Assembly (NCBI GenBank): GCA_000991245.1
Contig: LBRD01000002.1
Span: 108,141-172,140, forward strand
DNA from: Parcubacteria group bacterium GW2011_GWC1_36_108
Lineage (GTDB): Bacteria > Patescibacteriota > Minisyncoccia > Moranbacterales > GWC2-37-73
Length of the DNA: 64,000 nucleotides
Direction of reading: 5' to 3'
A program made the position numbers and the translations under genes. Under the pieces are notes generated by a model, which was not told the DNA's origin, made no database searches, and saw only the letters and a program-made list of their open reading frames with translations. Shown here one piece after another: positions 23,125 to 48,658 of this stretch (within the stretch, counting starts at the first letter, position 1; the number at the start of each line of letters is the position of its first letter).

Positions 23125-23334
23125 GTACTTGGTAGCCCAAGTTAGAAATTCTTGGAACCAGCTTATTAGTGAGCTTAATGAGTGGGCTATGTTTAGGAGA
23201 CGGGAAATGTGTGCTGAAAATATGGCTCAGATTGGCGTATAACATTTCTTACCGTATCTGCCATTAAAGAATGAAACCATATATAAACCCCGTCTGACAT
23301 ACACAGGCGGGGTAATTAAATGGGATAAATTTTT

Positions 23335-23817
23335 TTACGTGTGTAATTTATGTATTAAACCCGTATCGAGAAGACGAATAGACATTGCTTGCTCACTGAC
23401 TTCGAACTTTTTTGCGAGCTGGTTAATTCCAATTTTTCCCGAGTGCTCCTTAATTTCTTTCTCAATAAATTGTTTTGGCATTAGTAATTCTGATGCGAAT
23501 TTATTTGCCTCCTTCTCCTTGTTTATTGGCTTATCAAATCTATCATCAACAATTGTATGGTCATCGTGTCCCATTAAAAAATGTCCTAGCTCGTGTGCAA
23601 GTGTAAAACGTTGTCTTACCTTGGGATGGTTTTGATTAACGCCAATAAATGTCATTCCTTCCTTGTGCATTATCATCCCGGAAACATTGTCAGGAAAATC
23701 TGGGTATGGAACAACTTGTATGTTGAATAATGCAGCCACTTCTTCAAGGGGCACAGGCAACTTTTCTAGTCCAATTTTAGCAATAATTGTATTAACTTTT
23801 TCTGAAATACCTTCCAT
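23335..23817 (-). CDS. ImmA/IrrE-family zinc metallopeptidase (anti-repressor protease type)
   Basis: HEXXH motif AHELGHFLMGH; DUF955-like; immediately downstream of the XRE regulator. Confidence 0.75.
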   Translation of the reverse strand: MEGISEKVNTIIAKIGLEKLPVPLEEVAALFNIQVVPYPDFPDNVSGMIMHKEGMTFIGVNQNHPKVRQRFTLAHELGHFLMGHDDHTIVDDRFDKPINKEKEANKFASELLMPKQFIEKEIKEHSGKIGINQLAKKFEVSEQAMSIRLLDTGLIHKLHT

Positions 23818-24134
23818 TATTTTTTGTTTATGTTTGACTTTGCATACTTAAAAAAATCAGCCGTTAGTTTATCGTAGTTGCACTCAGGGTCAAGACTGCT
23901 TGCATCCGCCCTAAATTGAACCATTGTGCTGTCATTAGAAAAATAATTTTCTCCAAGGTTGAATGTTTGAATTAGTTTATGCAGTGATTCGCCACTTAAG
24001 ACGCGGGCGCCCTTCTCAACGTACGAAATATAGGACTCAGAAAGACCTAGGGTTGTCCCTAGTTCGTGCTGTTTAAGTCCTTTTTCTTTTCTAAGTTGTC
24101 TGATTTTTTTACCTACAGAAGATTCTATATTCAT
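23817..24134 (-). CDS. XRE-family helix-turn-helix transcriptional regulator (CI/ImmR-like)
   Basis: KKIRQLRKEKGLKQHELGTTLGLSESYISYVEKG, a canonical HTH_XRE. Confidence 0.8.
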   Translation of the reverse strand: MNIESSVGKKIRQLRKEKGLKQHELGTTLGLSESYISYVEKGARVLSGESLHKLIQTFNLGENYFSNDSTMVQFRADASSLDPECNYDKLTADFFKYAKSNINKK

Positions 24135-26694: not shown

Positions 26695-28206
26695 ATGGAA
26701 ACAGAAAAAACAGGCATCATCTATTGCAGAGTATCCTCAAAAGACCAAGTTGAAGGTACTAGCTTGGGCAGCCAAGAAAGGTTTTGCAAAGAATATGCAG
26801 AACGTAATGGTATTAGGATTTTAAAAATATACATTGAGCTTGGTGAATCAGCAAAAACAGCTAACCGAACAGAATTTAATAAGGCCTTAGCATTTTGTAG
26901 TGACAAAAAGAATAATGTCACTTTTTTTGTTGTTTATAAGCTAGATAGGTTTGCACGAAATCAAGAAGACCACGTTATGGTTCGAGCTTTATTAAAAAAG
27001 GCGGGTACTGATTTACGTTCAGTTACGGAAACAATAGACGAATCGCCAGTTGGGAAAGCGATGGAGGGTATGATTTCTGTTTTTGCGGAATTAGACAATA
27101 ATATGAGAACGGAAAGAACTAAGCAGGGTATGCTGGAACGCTTAAAACAAGGCTTCTGGAACTGGCAAGCACCCCTAGGCTACTATCGACCTTACAAGGG
27201 TTCAAATATTGTACCTGACCCTCAAAAGAGCGGGTTTATACGACTTGGTTTTGAAGAATATTCCAAAGGCACATACACTTATGAAAAAATTGCACTGTTT
27301 CTGTCAGACAGAGGTTTAAGGACAAAACAAAACAAAAACCCATCAACCGCCCTTATGCAAAAAATACTTACTAATCCTATTTATTATGGGTATATTGATG
27401 TTTGGGGTGGACATAAAGGAGCCTTCGAACCTATTATTTCAGAAAACTTGTTTAGAAAGTGCCAACCTGACTATATGAAGTCGGCGCACGCAGCACCAAG
27501 GTCAGCAAACAACCCCTTATTTCCCTTGAGAAAATTAGTTATTTGCGATGAATGTGGGGCTTCACTCACTGGCAGTACATCAAGAAATAGGCACGGTTCA
27601 AAATATCCATACTATCATCACCAGCACGCTGGTTGTAAAAAAACAAGGTCAATCCCAAAAGAATCATTCGAACAGCAATTTGTTGAATATCTGGACAGTA
27701 TCTCTCCCGGTATTAAATATGAAAAACTATTCAAAGCTATCGTTTTGGATGAATGGCAAAATGGCTACAAAAAGATAGACAACGAAAATGCACAAATAAG
27801 AAGAGACATAACTTCATTAGAAGCTGAACGCCAAAAAGTCTTCGATTTTCATCGTGCAGGAAAGTATACCGATGATGACCTATTTGAGCAAAAAAAACTA
27901 ATCGAGGATAGGATAAGTCAAAAGCACGCCCTCATACAAGACAAGAGATATGAGGAGTTTGAAATGAATGAGGTGCTTGAATATTGTTTTTCCTATGTTC
28001 GAACCTCTGCAAAATCGTGGATTGAGGCTGATTATGCAACAAAACTAAGTTTTCAAAAGTTAATCTTTGCAGATAGCATAAAATATGATGGTGAGAAATT
28101 TGGAACCCCTGATTTAAGGCTCCTATATACGATAAATCAGCACTCGCGTGCTGATAAATCTTCTTTGGTAGCGCCAAGGGGAATCGGACCCCTGTTACCA
28201 GGATGA
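26695..28206 (+). CDS. Large serine recombinase (resolvase/invertase catalytic domain, recombinase domain, zinc ribbon, coiled coil)
   Basis: IYCRVSSKDQ (catalytic Ser), YKLDRFARN, zinc ribbon CDECGASL...C; 503 aa; last 41 nt overlap tRNA-Glu antisense. Confidence 0.85.
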   Translation: METEKTGIIYCRVSSKDQVEGTSLGSQERFCKEYAERNGIRILKIYIELGESAKTANRTEFNKALAFCSDKKNNVTFFVVYKLDRFARNQEDHVMVRALLKKAGTDLRSVTETIDESPVGKAMEGMISVFAELDNNMRTERTKQGMLERLKQGFWNWQAPLGYYRPYKGSNIVPDPQKSGFIRLGFEEYSKGTYTYEKIALFLSDRGLRTKQNKNPSTALMQKILTNPIYYGYIDVWGGHKGAFEPIISENLFRKCQPDYMKSAHAAPRSANNPLFPLRKLVICDECGASLTGSTSRNRHGSKYPYYHHQHAGCKKTRSIPKESFEQQFVEYLDSISPGIKYEKLFKAIVLDEWQNGYKKIDNENAQIRRDITSLEAERQKVFDFHRAGKYTDDDLFEQKKLIEDRISQKHALIQDKRYEEFEMNEVLEYCFSYVRTSAKSWIEADYATKLSFQKLIFADSIKYDGEKFGTPDLRLLYTINQHSRADKSSLVAPRGIGPLLPG

Positions 28207-45773: not shown

Positions 45774-46121
45774 ATGCAAATTATTGATCAAGAAGTTAAG
45801 AAAACACAGGAGATTTTTAAGGTTCTGGAATTGGCGCCAGCGCAGACAAAGGAACACATTGAAAAAATAAAAAATGCATTGTTGATGGATATGGTCGCGG
45901 AAGCTTTTGCAGAAAAAGGTCAAATGATGGAAGATGCAAGTTTTACGCAAGACGACATCGAAGATTTTTTAACTGATAATTATGAAGAAGGAGAAGTTGC
46001 AGAAATTTTAAGCAGGGTTTCACGCGATGTGATTGTGGAATATTTTTCAAAAATATTAAAAGGTGCTGCTGAGGATAGAATTGAAAAAGTAAATGAAATT
46101 TTGACGGCAAAGTTTGAATAA
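45774..46121 (+). CDS. Hypothetical acidic protein
   Basis: 115-aa ORF. Confidence 0.45.
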   Translation: MQIIDQEVKKTQEIFKVLELAPAQTKEHIEKIKNALLMDMVAEAFAEKGQMMEDASFTQDDIEDFLTDNYEEGEVAEILSRVSRDVIVEYFSKILKGAAEDRIEKVNEILTAKFE

Positions 46122-46190
46122 TATTTTGCTTTGCCATTTTTGAAAAAGGTGTATACTGGGTGGGTATTTAAATACTTATTTAAAAAATAT

Positions 46191-46277
46191 ATGTTATATA
46201 ATAAAACTTGCCTTGCAAATGTTGAGCCAGATGAAGATGATGACGACGATGAGGATTGCGGCGATTTTGGTTGCTAA
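46191..46277 (+). CDS. Small ORF: 28-aa acidic Cys-containing peptide (MLYNKTCLANVEPDEDDDDDEDCGDFGC)
   Basis: ATG 46191, stop 46275-46277, followed at 46293-46325 by hairpin terminator aaaaatggtcacat-tgcg-atgtgaccattttt. Below the ORF-track size cutoff. Confidence 0.3.
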   Translation: MLYNKTCLANVEPDEDDDDDEDCGDFGC

Positions 46278-46338
46278 GAAAAAATACAAATAAAAAATGG
46301 TCACATTGCGATGTGACCATTTTTGTTTGTGTATGACT

Positions 46339-46497
46339 TTATACTGTTGACCCGTATGGCTTTTCATCACCGGTCGTTTCGCTGGCTTTTTGCATTAACT
46401 TGAGAAGCCTATCTAGATTTTTCTTAGCTTGTTTTGAAAGTTTTTGTAACTCCTCAAGTTGCTGCTCTTTGGATAATTGTACGGGTATGATTTTCAT
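46339..46497 (-). CDS. Small ORF (52 aa) downstream of 46525..47112
   Basis: MKIIPVQLSKEQQLEELQKLSKQAKKNLDRLLKLMQKASETTGDEKPYGSTV; coiled-coil-like. Confidence 0.3.
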   Translation of the reverse strand: MKIIPVQLSKEQQLEELQKLSKQAKKNLDRLLKLMQKASETTGDEKPYGSTV

Positions 46498-46524
46498 GGG
46501 CGATCAACTCCTTTCAATTTCTGA

Positions 46525-47112
46525 TTAACACTGATGAGACTTTGCTTTTTGAAGCGCTTCCTTTATTGGCATATTGTTTATTTTGTGCACGCCTAGATCT
46601 TTCAATAGTGTTATTGTTTCAACTCGGATGTCTCCCAGATGCAATGGATAGCATATTGTGGGGATTTTTTCCGCAATTTCCAGGAGAAGTTTTTTGGCTC
46701 GCTCAGGATTTTTTTCAAGCAGTAGTTTGGCGTATTGAAAAATTCCTTCATATCCAAGCATTCCGTTAACACGAGAAACTTCTTCTGAGATGTACGCACC
46801 ACAATTTGGCGGGTCATACAAAAAGAGTAGATCTTTTTTATCTCCCGCAATCAAATCAAACAATTCCAAGGCTTCTTCTTGTTTTTTGTCCGCAATCAAA
46901 TAAAGTGCATATTCTTCAGCATAAGGACTTTTACCATTGAAAGACATGTTTTGGTTGAAGACAGTAGAAATTTTTGTGAACAGTTCTAGTAGTTCCGTTG
47001 TGGTTTTTGGCAGTTCGTATCTTGGACCATCATGGATAACCATCTTGATTAATGAAAAATCTTTTAGCGCGGATTGTAAAATTTTGCTGGCCTCAAAAAT
47101 ATTTGTCTTCAT
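46525..47112 (-). CDS. Hypothetical protein
   Basis: 195-aa ORF; no motif recognised. Confidence 0.45.
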   Translation of the reverse strand: MKTNIFEASKILQSALKDFSLIKMVIHDGPRYELPKTTTELLELFTKISTVFNQNMSFNGKSPYAEEYALYLIADKKQEEALELFDLIAGDKKDLLFLYDPPNCGAYISEEVSRVNGMLGYEGIFQYAKLLLEKNPERAKKLLLEIAEKIPTICYPLHLGDIRVETITLLKDLGVHKINNMPIKEALQKAKSHQC

Positions 47113-47279
47113 AAAAACCTCCCTTGGTTTGTATTGATTTTGGAAATTAATTTAGTGGTCTGAATTGTTAAGAAGCTACGGTTATTGAGTGTATAAATAA
47201 AAAGAGTTTTAGTCAAACCATGTGTTTTGAAAGGAGGATGGAATGTTGGCGTAGTAGTTGTTTGCATGCTGTTTTATAT

Positions 47280-47341
47280 ATACCCCTGGAGGGTATTTGA
47301 CAAGAAATACGGTGCGGGTGTAATATACCCCTAGAGGGTAT
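47280..47341 (+). promoter_or_regulatory. gdhA promoter (TTGACA-18-TAATAT) bracketed by two 17-bp palindromes ATACCCCT(G/A)GAGGGTAT (candidate operators)
   Basis: atacccctggagggtat|TTGACA|agaaatacggtgcgggtg|TAATAT overlapping atacccctagagggtat; 94 nt upstream of the gdhA ATG. Confidence 0.55.
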
Positions 47342-47419
47342 ATATCGCTGCGCGTAATTTTTTAATTTTTAATTTAAAATTTTTAAACAATAAAAAATTA
47401 TTTTTTAAAAAGAAAATTT

Positions 47420-48658
47420 ATGAAAAATGATGCATTTGCAAGTGCGCTGAGTCAACTCGAGCAAGTTCAGAAACTCATAAAAATAGATAAAAATATTTTT
47501 GCACAACTTCAAAGCCCGCAAAGAATTTTGGAAGTTTCCATTCCAGTTAAGATGGATAATGGCAATATCCAAGTTTTTACAGGTTATCGAAGTCAGTTTA
47601 ATGATGCACGCGGACCATTTAAAGGTGGAATAAGATTTCATCCGGACGTGAATATTTCGGAAGTTAAAGCGCTAAGTGCCTGGATGACTTGGAAAACTGC
47701 TGTAGTTGGAATTCCCTTGGGTGGTGGAAAAGGCGGTGTGATTGTTGATCCAAAAAAACTTTCTGAAAATGAATTGGAAAAACTTTCACGTGGATATATA
47801 CAAGCTATTTTTAAATTTATTGGACCTAATTTGGATATACCAGCCCCTGATATGTATACTGATCCGAAAATTATGGGTTGGATGCTGGATGAATATGAAA
47901 AATTAGCTGGTTTTCATATCCCAGGGGTAATCACTGGGAAACCTCTTTCTATTGGAGGTAGTAATGTTAGGGGTTATTCTACTGCACAAGGAGCTTTTTA
48001 TGTTTTAAAAGAGGCTGTGAAAAAAGTTGGAATTCGAAAAGATGCAACTGTCGCTATTGAAGGTTTTGGTAATGCTGGGGCTCATTTGGCTCAGATTTTG
48101 CAAAAAAATGGCTTTAGAATTGTTGCACTTAGCGATTCAAAAGGGATGATTGTAAATTATATGGGACTAGATGTTGAGCAAGTGAAAAAGTATAAAGAAA
48201 AGACAGGAAGTGTGGTTGGATATCCTGGTGCTGAAAAAATTAAACATTCACATATTATTGCACAAGAAGTTGACATCCTGATTCCTTCTGCATTAGAAAA
48301 TTCAATAACTGTGGATAATGTTAAAACAGTAAAAGCAAAATTAATAATAGAAGTAGCTAATGGACCCATAACTCCTGGGGCGGATGCAATTTTGGCAAAG
48401 AGAAATATTATGGTTGTGCCAGACATTTTGGCTAATGCTGGAGGAGTAGTTGTGAGTTATTTGGAACAAGTTCAAAATGCATACGGATATTATTGGAGTG
48501 AGGAAAAAGTTCTGAAAAAATTAGAGCAAATTATGAAGGAATCGTTTGCATATGTTTGGGAGCAAAAAATGAAACATAATACTACTGTAAGAATGGGTGC
48601 GTATGTGTTGGCCATTAATCGTGTATCACAGGCAATGGTTGATCGGGGCAGGATGTAA
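47420..48658 (+). CDS. gdhA: Glutamate dehydrogenase (Glu/Leu/Phe/Val dehydrogenase family)
   Basis: GGIRFHPDVN...WKTAVVGIPLGGGKGG; NAD(P)-binding GFGNAG; 412 aa. Confidence 0.9.
   Translation: MKNDAFASALSQLEQVQKLIKIDKNIFAQLQSPQRILEVSIPVKMDNGNIQVFTGYRSQFNDARGPFKGGIRFHPDVNISEVKALSAWMTWKTAVVGIPLGGGKGGVIVDPKKLSENELEKLSRGYIQAIFKFIGPNLDIPAPDMYTDPKIMGWMLDEYEKLAGFHIPGVITGKPLSIGGSNVRGYSTAQGAFYVLKEAVKKVGIRKDATVAIEGFGNAGAHLAQILQKNGFRIVALSDSKGMIVNYMGLDVEQVKKYKEKTGSVVGYPGAEKIKHSHIIAQEVDILIPSALENSITVDNVKTVKAKLIIEVANGPITPGADAILAKRNIMVVPDILANAGGVVVSYLEQVQNAYGYYWSEEKVLKKLEQIMKESFAYVWEQKMKHNTTVRMGAYVLAINRVSQAMVDRGRM

Follow-up and report, generated by a model that had tools for sequence, protein, structure and literature searches.

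The promoter of the glutamate dehydrogenase gene (gdh) in the window, by which we mean the whole stretch of 64,000 nucleotides analysed here, is enclosed by two 17-bp palindromes that, judging from sequence comparison, are very probably operators of a CsoR-family protein repressing gdh. Sequence comparison shows the sites and their conservation, their association with PF02583 genes across the family, the operator that gdh has in common with the regulator's own promoter, and the linkage of csoR-like, trxB, trxA and gdh in several CPR lineages. We infer that the repressor actually binds and that its effect is repression, and likewise what the signal is and what glutamate dehydrogenase (GDH) contributes. 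The general type of switch, in which a repressor of the CsoR family binds a GC-tract palindrome lying over a promoter, is already well known. In open-access papers, we found no prior description of a regulon comprising the thioredoxin system and GDH under control of a CsoR protein or of an unlinked gdh promoter with a double operator, nor any earlier report of the corresponding gene linkage, which occurs in Moranbacteria, Komeilibacteria and at least one other lineage of Patescibacteria.

The gdh promoter and its two palindromes

Site 1 (ATACCCCTGGAGGGTAT, 47280-47296, no strand assigned) spans approximately the promoter positions -53 to -37 and touches the -35 hexamer TTGACA (47297-47302, plus strand), which is separated by a spacer of 18 bp from the -10 hexamer TAATAT (47321-47326, plus strand). 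The final two bases of the -10 hexamer are shared with site 2 (ATACCCCTAGAGGGTAT, 47325-47341, no strand assigned), which covers approximately -8 to +9 and has its centre at the predicted transcription start near 47333. The -35 hexamer was located by a scan with a sigma-70-like consensus, in which the gdh promoter ranked first within 46100-47500 with 10 of 12 consensus matches. With the start position deduced from the -10 hexamer, an AT-rich 5' leader is predicted from 47342 to 47419 (plus strand), and the regulated gene follows at 47420-48658 (plus strand). Its 412-aa product is a Glu/Leu/Phe/Val dehydrogenase (PF02812 and PF00208; Pfam E-values 3e-74 and 8e-59), for which the best NCBIfam model is the archaeal-type GdhA (GdhA_Arch, 532 bits, under the cut-off of the model) and which NCBI names 'Glutamate dehydrogenase (NAD/NADP)'. 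The arrangement described in an earlier note on this DNA, two GC-rich 17-bp palindromes flanking a near-consensus promoter, was confirmed in that both sites are exact matches, the hexamers TTGACA and TAATAT lie 18 bp apart and a true gdh is located downstream. The 17-mers are present where the note had placed them, but they are imperfect palindromes, consisting of perfect 6-bp arms (ATACCC/GGGTAT) around a 5-bp centre.

Among relatives, the ideal form of the palindrome is ATACCCC-N3-GGGGTAT. The pattern of the window sites, ATA-CCCC-T(G/A)GA-GGG-TAT, fits the operator form of PF02583 proteins, with G/C tracts of at least 3-4 bp and an AT-rich TAC/GTA inverted repeat, and on the reverse strand the sites read ATACCCTC(C/T)AGGGGTAT. 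Two copies of ATACCC-N5-GGGTAT, 45 bp apart, compare with 0.0024 expected per 64 kb from the base composition, and no third copy was found anywhere else in the 64-kb window. When up to three mismatches were allowed, shuffled sequence contained 0.18 matches on average. Matches with two mismatches at 23299, 26645 and 61104 of the window were judged to be chance occurrences.

For comparison, the contigs that encode GDH homologues in other Moranbacteria were located. The 62-bp unit composed of site 1, -35 hexamer, spacer, -10 hexamer and site 2 has 90-92% identity in L143 and L007 and the sequence flanking it only 36-60%, which supports the geometry of repressor occlusion proposed in the earlier note. 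Site 2 is 100% identical in both relatives, and site 1 keeps the arms ATACCC/GGGTAT with a different centre (L143 ATACCCTCAGGGGGTAT, L007/L153 ATACCCCAGCAGGGTAT). L143 and L007/L153, which are the closest relatives of the window, have gdh without a regulator gene beside it and carry both operators at the same spacing of 45 bp; in the gdh promoter of L005, only site 2 was retained. Nearly all related promoters have TTGAC(A/G/T) 16-18 bp 5' of TAAT-AT, and the fusion of -10 hexamer and operator, TAATATACCCC, recurs in L007, L009, L011, L137, L143 and others.

Palindromes next to a promoter might instead be hairpins, acting as terminator, attenuator or another RNA element, or dispersed copies of a repeat or mobile element that has nothing to do with promoters, but we give this explanation virtually no weight. 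The 151-nt region folds better than shuffled sequences (z = -2.7), which is explained by the ability of two near-identical palindromes to pair together. Since site 1 is located upstream of the -35 hexamer and the predicted start lies inside site 2, neither full hairpin would be present in the gdh mRNA. Neither site is followed by a T-run, Rfam yielded no match for the 5' leader and promoter region of gdh, the 64 kb contain two copies only, and wherever else the motif occurs, its distance to a TTGACA box is constant. Conserved arms combined with centres that vary without compensation fit recognition by a protein and do not fit base pairing.

The probable regulator gene and its operons in related genomes

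No PF02583 ORF was found in six frames of the 64-kb window (best E-value approximately 1.5), which was searched by phmmer with CsoR of B. subtilis and with RcnR and FrmR of E. coli, and by hmmsearch with a profile of the family from the candidate phyla radiation (CPR). In L009/L010, where GDH is 76% identical to that of the window, an 85-aa PF02583 gene is located 15 bp upstream of gdh in an operon that also contains a gene for a 305-aa thioredoxin-reductase-like protein and is preceded by the promoter TTGACA-16-TAATATACCCCTATAGGGTAT. PF02583 genes of related Moranbacteria (85-97 aa) head operons of the types csoR-like-gdh-trxB, csoR-like-trxA-trxB or csoR-like-trxB. The order csoR-like-gdh-trxB with an operator fused to the -10 hexamer was observed in L009, L011-L016, L034, L065, L102, L146, L151 and L160, csoR-trxB-trxA-gdh in L058 (Komeilibacteria), csoR-trxA-trxB-gdh in L096 and csoR-trxB without gdh in L159 and L161, and L118 has a lone trxA carrying the operator. 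The trxB-like gene is the constant partner of the two-Cys csoR-like gene, to which trxA and/or gdh are added in varying order. Each locus of L001-L016 contains one or two copies of the motif, all of them immediately in front of gdh or of a PF02583 gene. Promoters of the regulator's own operons have a single site, compared with two at the detached gdh in the clade of the window, and the double operator suggests tighter or cooperative repression of the detached gdh.

As a side observation, the Moranbacteria-like L159 contains at positions 2368-2410 two more operator-like sites, ATACCCCCATGGGGTAC and ATACCATAAGGGGGTAT, which are preceded by a TTGACA box and lie upstream of genes for a 145-aa protein and an NAD(P) enzyme resembling Shikimate_DH and saccharopine dehydrogenase. 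The latter may be a further dehydrogenase that has joined the csoR-trxB regulon.

For the clade of the window itself, a profile search with the family alignment, which found roughly 5,800 relatives, identified P0206 (92 aa) in a MAG that shares 98% GDH identity with the window; the accessions listed for P0206 are those of the sister MAGs and not of the source MAG, and the contig carrying P0206 and the window do not overlap. P0206 heads a csoR-like-trxA-trxB operon in L137, with the promoter CTTGACG-17-TAATATACCCCTAGAGGGTAT. The 21-mer TAATATACCCCTAGAGGGTAT is identical between the region of site 2 in the window and the csoR-like-trxA-trxB promoter of L137/L156. Exact matches to this 21-mer in the JGI metagenome collection numbered 13, of which 10 precede csoR-like genes and 3 precede gdh, the window's own site being left out because its sample lies outside the collection. 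A contig of 483,584 bp from the sister strain contains exactly two of these 21-mers, one at gdh (approximately 57.8 kb) and one at csoR-like-trxA-trxB (approximately 134.7 kb). On this contig, the regulator gene is located approximately 77 kb downstream of gdh, and its product would therefore act in trans. By analogy with the sister strain, we infer that the repressor of the window's gdh would likewise act in trans, from a gene outside the window and its source contig. A palindrome confined to this place and unaccompanied by a regulator, which the earlier note had named as an outcome that would refute its reading, is literally what the window contains; the related genomes, in which the identical operator precedes the regulator gene, overturn this objection.

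A scan for the motif TAATATACCCCNNNNGGGTATA in one genome per species returned at least 120 loci from many phyla, the source genome not being among those listed. A CsoR-family ORF is present within 1.5 kb at 76 of the 120 motif loci listed, which include oral streptococci, where the operator has already been characterised. In other CPR bacteria (L020, L022, L064 and L116, belonging to Saccharibacteria and Parcubacteria), the motif precedes CsoR genes that encode the sensing His, and the gene that follows was read by eye as a metal-transporting ATPase. The occurrence of the motif before His-containing CsoR genes as well marks it as a family-level type of operator that does not by itself identify the paralogue, and in a genome with two paralogues the DNA alone cannot name the binder, because the motif class is common to both kinds of CsoR. 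The identical operator and the gene linkage are the grounds on which the window sites are provisionally assigned to the two-Cys branch.

The earlier note had expected a regulon of nitrogen or amino-acid metabolism and had considered the product of the divergent ORF at 46525-47112 as the regulator. The status of gdh as a classic nitrogen-metabolism gene and the adjacent position of this uncharacterised ORF speak for operators of either kind, but we regard both as highly improbable. Neither NtcA (GTAN8TAC), TnrA/GlnR (TGTNAN7TNACA) nor sigma-54/NtrC-like motifs (TGGC-N7-8-TGC) were detected on either strand of 47113-47420, and the putatively co-regulated genes that were found are csoR-like, trxA and trxB. 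The ORF lies in a strain-specific insertion of approximately 950 bp (about 46330-47279) directly upstream of site 1, which is absent from L143 (the 98% sister) and from L007, yet both of these keep both operators. Alignment with the sister strain picks up again at or inside site 1. Furthermore, the motif tracks PF02583, as the 76 of 120 listed loci demonstrate, and all 13 of the 13 exact 21-mers lie at csoR-like or gdh promoters.

The two minus-strand ORFs of the insertion, 46525-47112 (195 aa) and 46339-46497, have no family match, and searches in Pfam, NCBIfam, PHROGs and PADLOC yielded nothing meaningful for them. The neighbouring 115-aa and 195-aa ORFs were also considered as CsoR-like candidates and rejected, as hhalign against the CsoR-like profile gave probabilities of about 1% or lower. 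On the minus strand, a third ORF (46194-46370) lies only in part within the insertion and also overlaps a conserved small ORF on the opposite strand. The latter (46191-46277, plus strand, 26-29 aa) is located between the gene for the 115-aa protein and the gdh promoter and reads MLYNKTCLANVEPDEDDDDDEDCGDFGC*. Its orthologues in L143, L007 and L005 (5528-5617) differ partly by synonymous changes, and its product has an acidic run and the C-terminal sequence (C/G)(G/S)DFGC, after which a hairpin follows; conceivably, this product is a precursor peptide or has a role in redox reactions or metal binding. The stretch 46150-46175, in front of the small ORF, contains TATACTGGGTGGGTAT, a G-rich element flanked by TAC/GTA with a shorter spacing than in the gdh operators, which is nearly kept in L143 (TATAATGGGTGGGTAT) and may only be part of the promoter of the small ORF. 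The hairpin at 46293-46324, with a perfect 14-bp stem (AAAAATGGTCACAT...ATGTGACCATTTTT), marks the left edge of the insertion and looks like a bidirectional terminator because of T-runs on both strands; the sister strain has a different hairpin in its place. Elsewhere in the window, a gene with an XRE-type HTH-like domain is paired with a gene for a 160-aa protein (23335-24134), and a serine-recombinase-like ORF of 503 aa with the N-terminus GIIYCRVSSKDQ is found at 26695-28206. Judged from their N-terminal sequences, the XRE-type pair and the recombinase-like ORF hint at an integrated mobile element.

Probable signal and proposed mechanism

In an alignment of 21 members of the regulator family, C38 and C65 are invariant and no His is present at the Y position. 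Neither His3 nor Pro2 is present in the N-termini, which vary among the members (MKKE..., MSQQ...). The regulator thereby carries the x-C-x-C signature of CstR-type sensors and has neither the RcnR signature (H-C-H-H, His3) nor that of FrmR (P-C-H-x, Pro2). P0206 remains far under the NCBIfam cut-offs for RicR (51 bits versus 175), RcnR (40 versus 138) and FrmR (35 versus 133), and its nearest relatives of solved structure are Geobacillus CsoR 4M1P (E-value 7e-14), InrS 5FMN and S. pneumoniae CstR 7MQ1.

With a copper-sensing CsoR as the closest solved homologue, and with the motif class common to CsoR genes beside presumed metal-transporting ATPases (read by eye in L020, L022, L064 and L116), the sites could be operators of a copper sensor of the C-H-C type, which would place gdh in a copper-stress regulon. 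We consider this improbable. The PF02583 genes that are linked to gdh and preceded by the identical operator encode no His at the Y position, and thus lack the C-H-C ligands of Cu(I)-sensing CsoR proteins; release driven by Cu(I) requires this His, and its loss uncouples Cu(I) binding from DNA release (PMC8643695). Neither copA nor copZ is found beside the gdh-linked regulators, whose partners are trxA, trxB and gdh, and the low score of P0206 against RicR, RcnR and FrmR points in the same direction.

Two invariant Cys without a sensing His, as in CstR, argue for a switch operated by thiols or persulfides. Taken from sequence features of this kind, thiol oxidation or persulfide/reactive sulfur has about an even chance of being the signal. 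No rhodanese, persulfide dioxygenase (PDO) or SQR gene, as would be typical of a CstR-type regulon, was found near the regulator in approximately 20 contexts.

In the mechanism that we propose, the repressor would be an 85-97 aa protein of the CsoR/RcnR family (DUF156, PF02583), from the two-Cys subfamily without the sensing His. In the reduced state, repressor tetramers would sit on site 2, over the -10 hexamer and the transcription start, and on site 1, against the -35 hexamer, and the bound tetramers would deny RNA polymerase access to the promoter. Once the Cys pair is oxidised or persulfidated, a di- or polysulfide between subunits might form, as it does in CstR or TTHA1953, and the DNA would be released, which would induce gdh along with thioredoxin and thioredoxin reductase. 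As the repressor would also control the thioredoxin system, gdh looks like a member of a thiol-stress regulon and not of a nitrogen regulon.

Within such a regulon, GDH might serve as a source of NAD(P)H for thioredoxin reductase, a guess that is based on its recurrent linkage with a pyridine-nucleotide-dependent disulfide reductase. [quoted passage not shown] The thioredoxin-reductase-like partner (P0281, L137 8748-9665) and its orthologues have a CATC redox site. P0281 contains YRGEKLR instead of the NADPH motif HRRxxxR and scores under the cut-off of TIGR01292, and because of the atypical motif and the sub-cut-off score it is uncertain whether its reductant is NADH, NADPH or another compound, so that the idea of NAD(P)H supply is speculative. 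Alternatively, GDH might provide 2-oxoglutarate as a peroxide scavenger. It is conceivable, although we rate the chance somewhat below even, that a conserved thiol-stress regulon exists CPR-wide in which a previously uncharacterised two-Cys CsoR branch co-represses the thioredoxin system and GDH, with GDH as a dedicated source of NAD(P)H or 2-oxoglutarate for thioredoxin reductase in cells without the oxidative pentose phosphate pathway. With the same tentativeness, this regulon may have acquired GDH several times, with the genes arranged differently and, in the window, with gdh standing apart from the other genes behind two operators.

CPR bacteria have not been brought into culture, and knowledge of how they regulate their genes is sparse. 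The combination of a two-Cys CsoR-family repressor, the operator ATACCCC-N3-GGGGTAT fused to the -10 hexamer and the targets trxA, trxB and gdh constitutes a testable triplet. If the proposed control is true, gdh would move from nitrogen metabolism to redox homeostasis in these organisms. [quoted passage not shown] To the CsoR family, with Cu, Ni/Co, formaldehyde and persulfide as the described inputs, it would add a type of regulon comprising the thioredoxin system and GDH.

Comparison with known regulatory systems

Induction of the thioredoxin system via a cysteine-based redox switch is also brought about by Spx in Firmicutes and OxyR in Proteobacteria, although the analogy is functional only, as the target of Spx is RNA polymerase, OxyR belongs to the LysR-type activators, and both families and mechanisms are unrelated to CsoR. 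To our knowledge, neither the control by Spx nor that by OxyR includes gdh.

CsoR proteins (copper-sensitive operon repressors) as described from B. subtilis, M. tuberculosis and Geobacillus, the last of which provides the best PDB sequence match (4M1P), belong to the same fold family as the regulator considered here. Their operators are likewise GC-tract pseudo-palindromes over the -10 or -35 hexamer, and their genes are autoregulated, as may be the case for the regulator considered here. In contrast to the regulator considered here, CsoR has a Cu(I)-ligating His and copA/copZ as neighbours. Sites of CsoR-family proteins in general are described as pseudo-palindromes in which runs of four or more G or C are combined with an inverted repeat TAC/GTA (PMC10318464). 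A parallel in terms of the sensing chemistry is offered by TTHA1953 of Thermus thermophilus, a two-Cys member of the CsoR family that binds DNA in its reduced form and loses binding upon disulfide formation, and whose regulon begins with the thioredoxin-like gene soxW (PMC10318464). However, the operator of TTHA1953 is TACNNTACNNNNGTANNGTA, and its regulon serves thiosulfate oxidation by the sox pathway and does not consist of trxA, trxB and gdh.

CstR, the CsoR-like sulfurtransferase repressor described from S. aureus, E. faecalis, S. mitis and S. pneumoniae, is a PF02583 protein with two Cys and no His, like the regulator considered here (PMC8643695). The similarity between S. pneumoniae CstR 7MQ1 and P0206 is modest, with an E-value of 1e-9 over approximately 50 residues. 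CstR regulons comprise rhodaneses, CoA persulfide reductase, persulfide dioxygenase and SQR, whereas the genes found here are trxA, a trxB-like flavoprotein gene and gdh. The S. mitis cst operator used in binding assays with CstR is ATATACCCTTATGGGGTATAT (PMC8643695). Its core, ATACCCTTATGGGGTAT, is nearly the same as the reverse strand of the sites at gdh, ATACCCTC(Y)AGGGGTAT, and both operators overlap a promoter.
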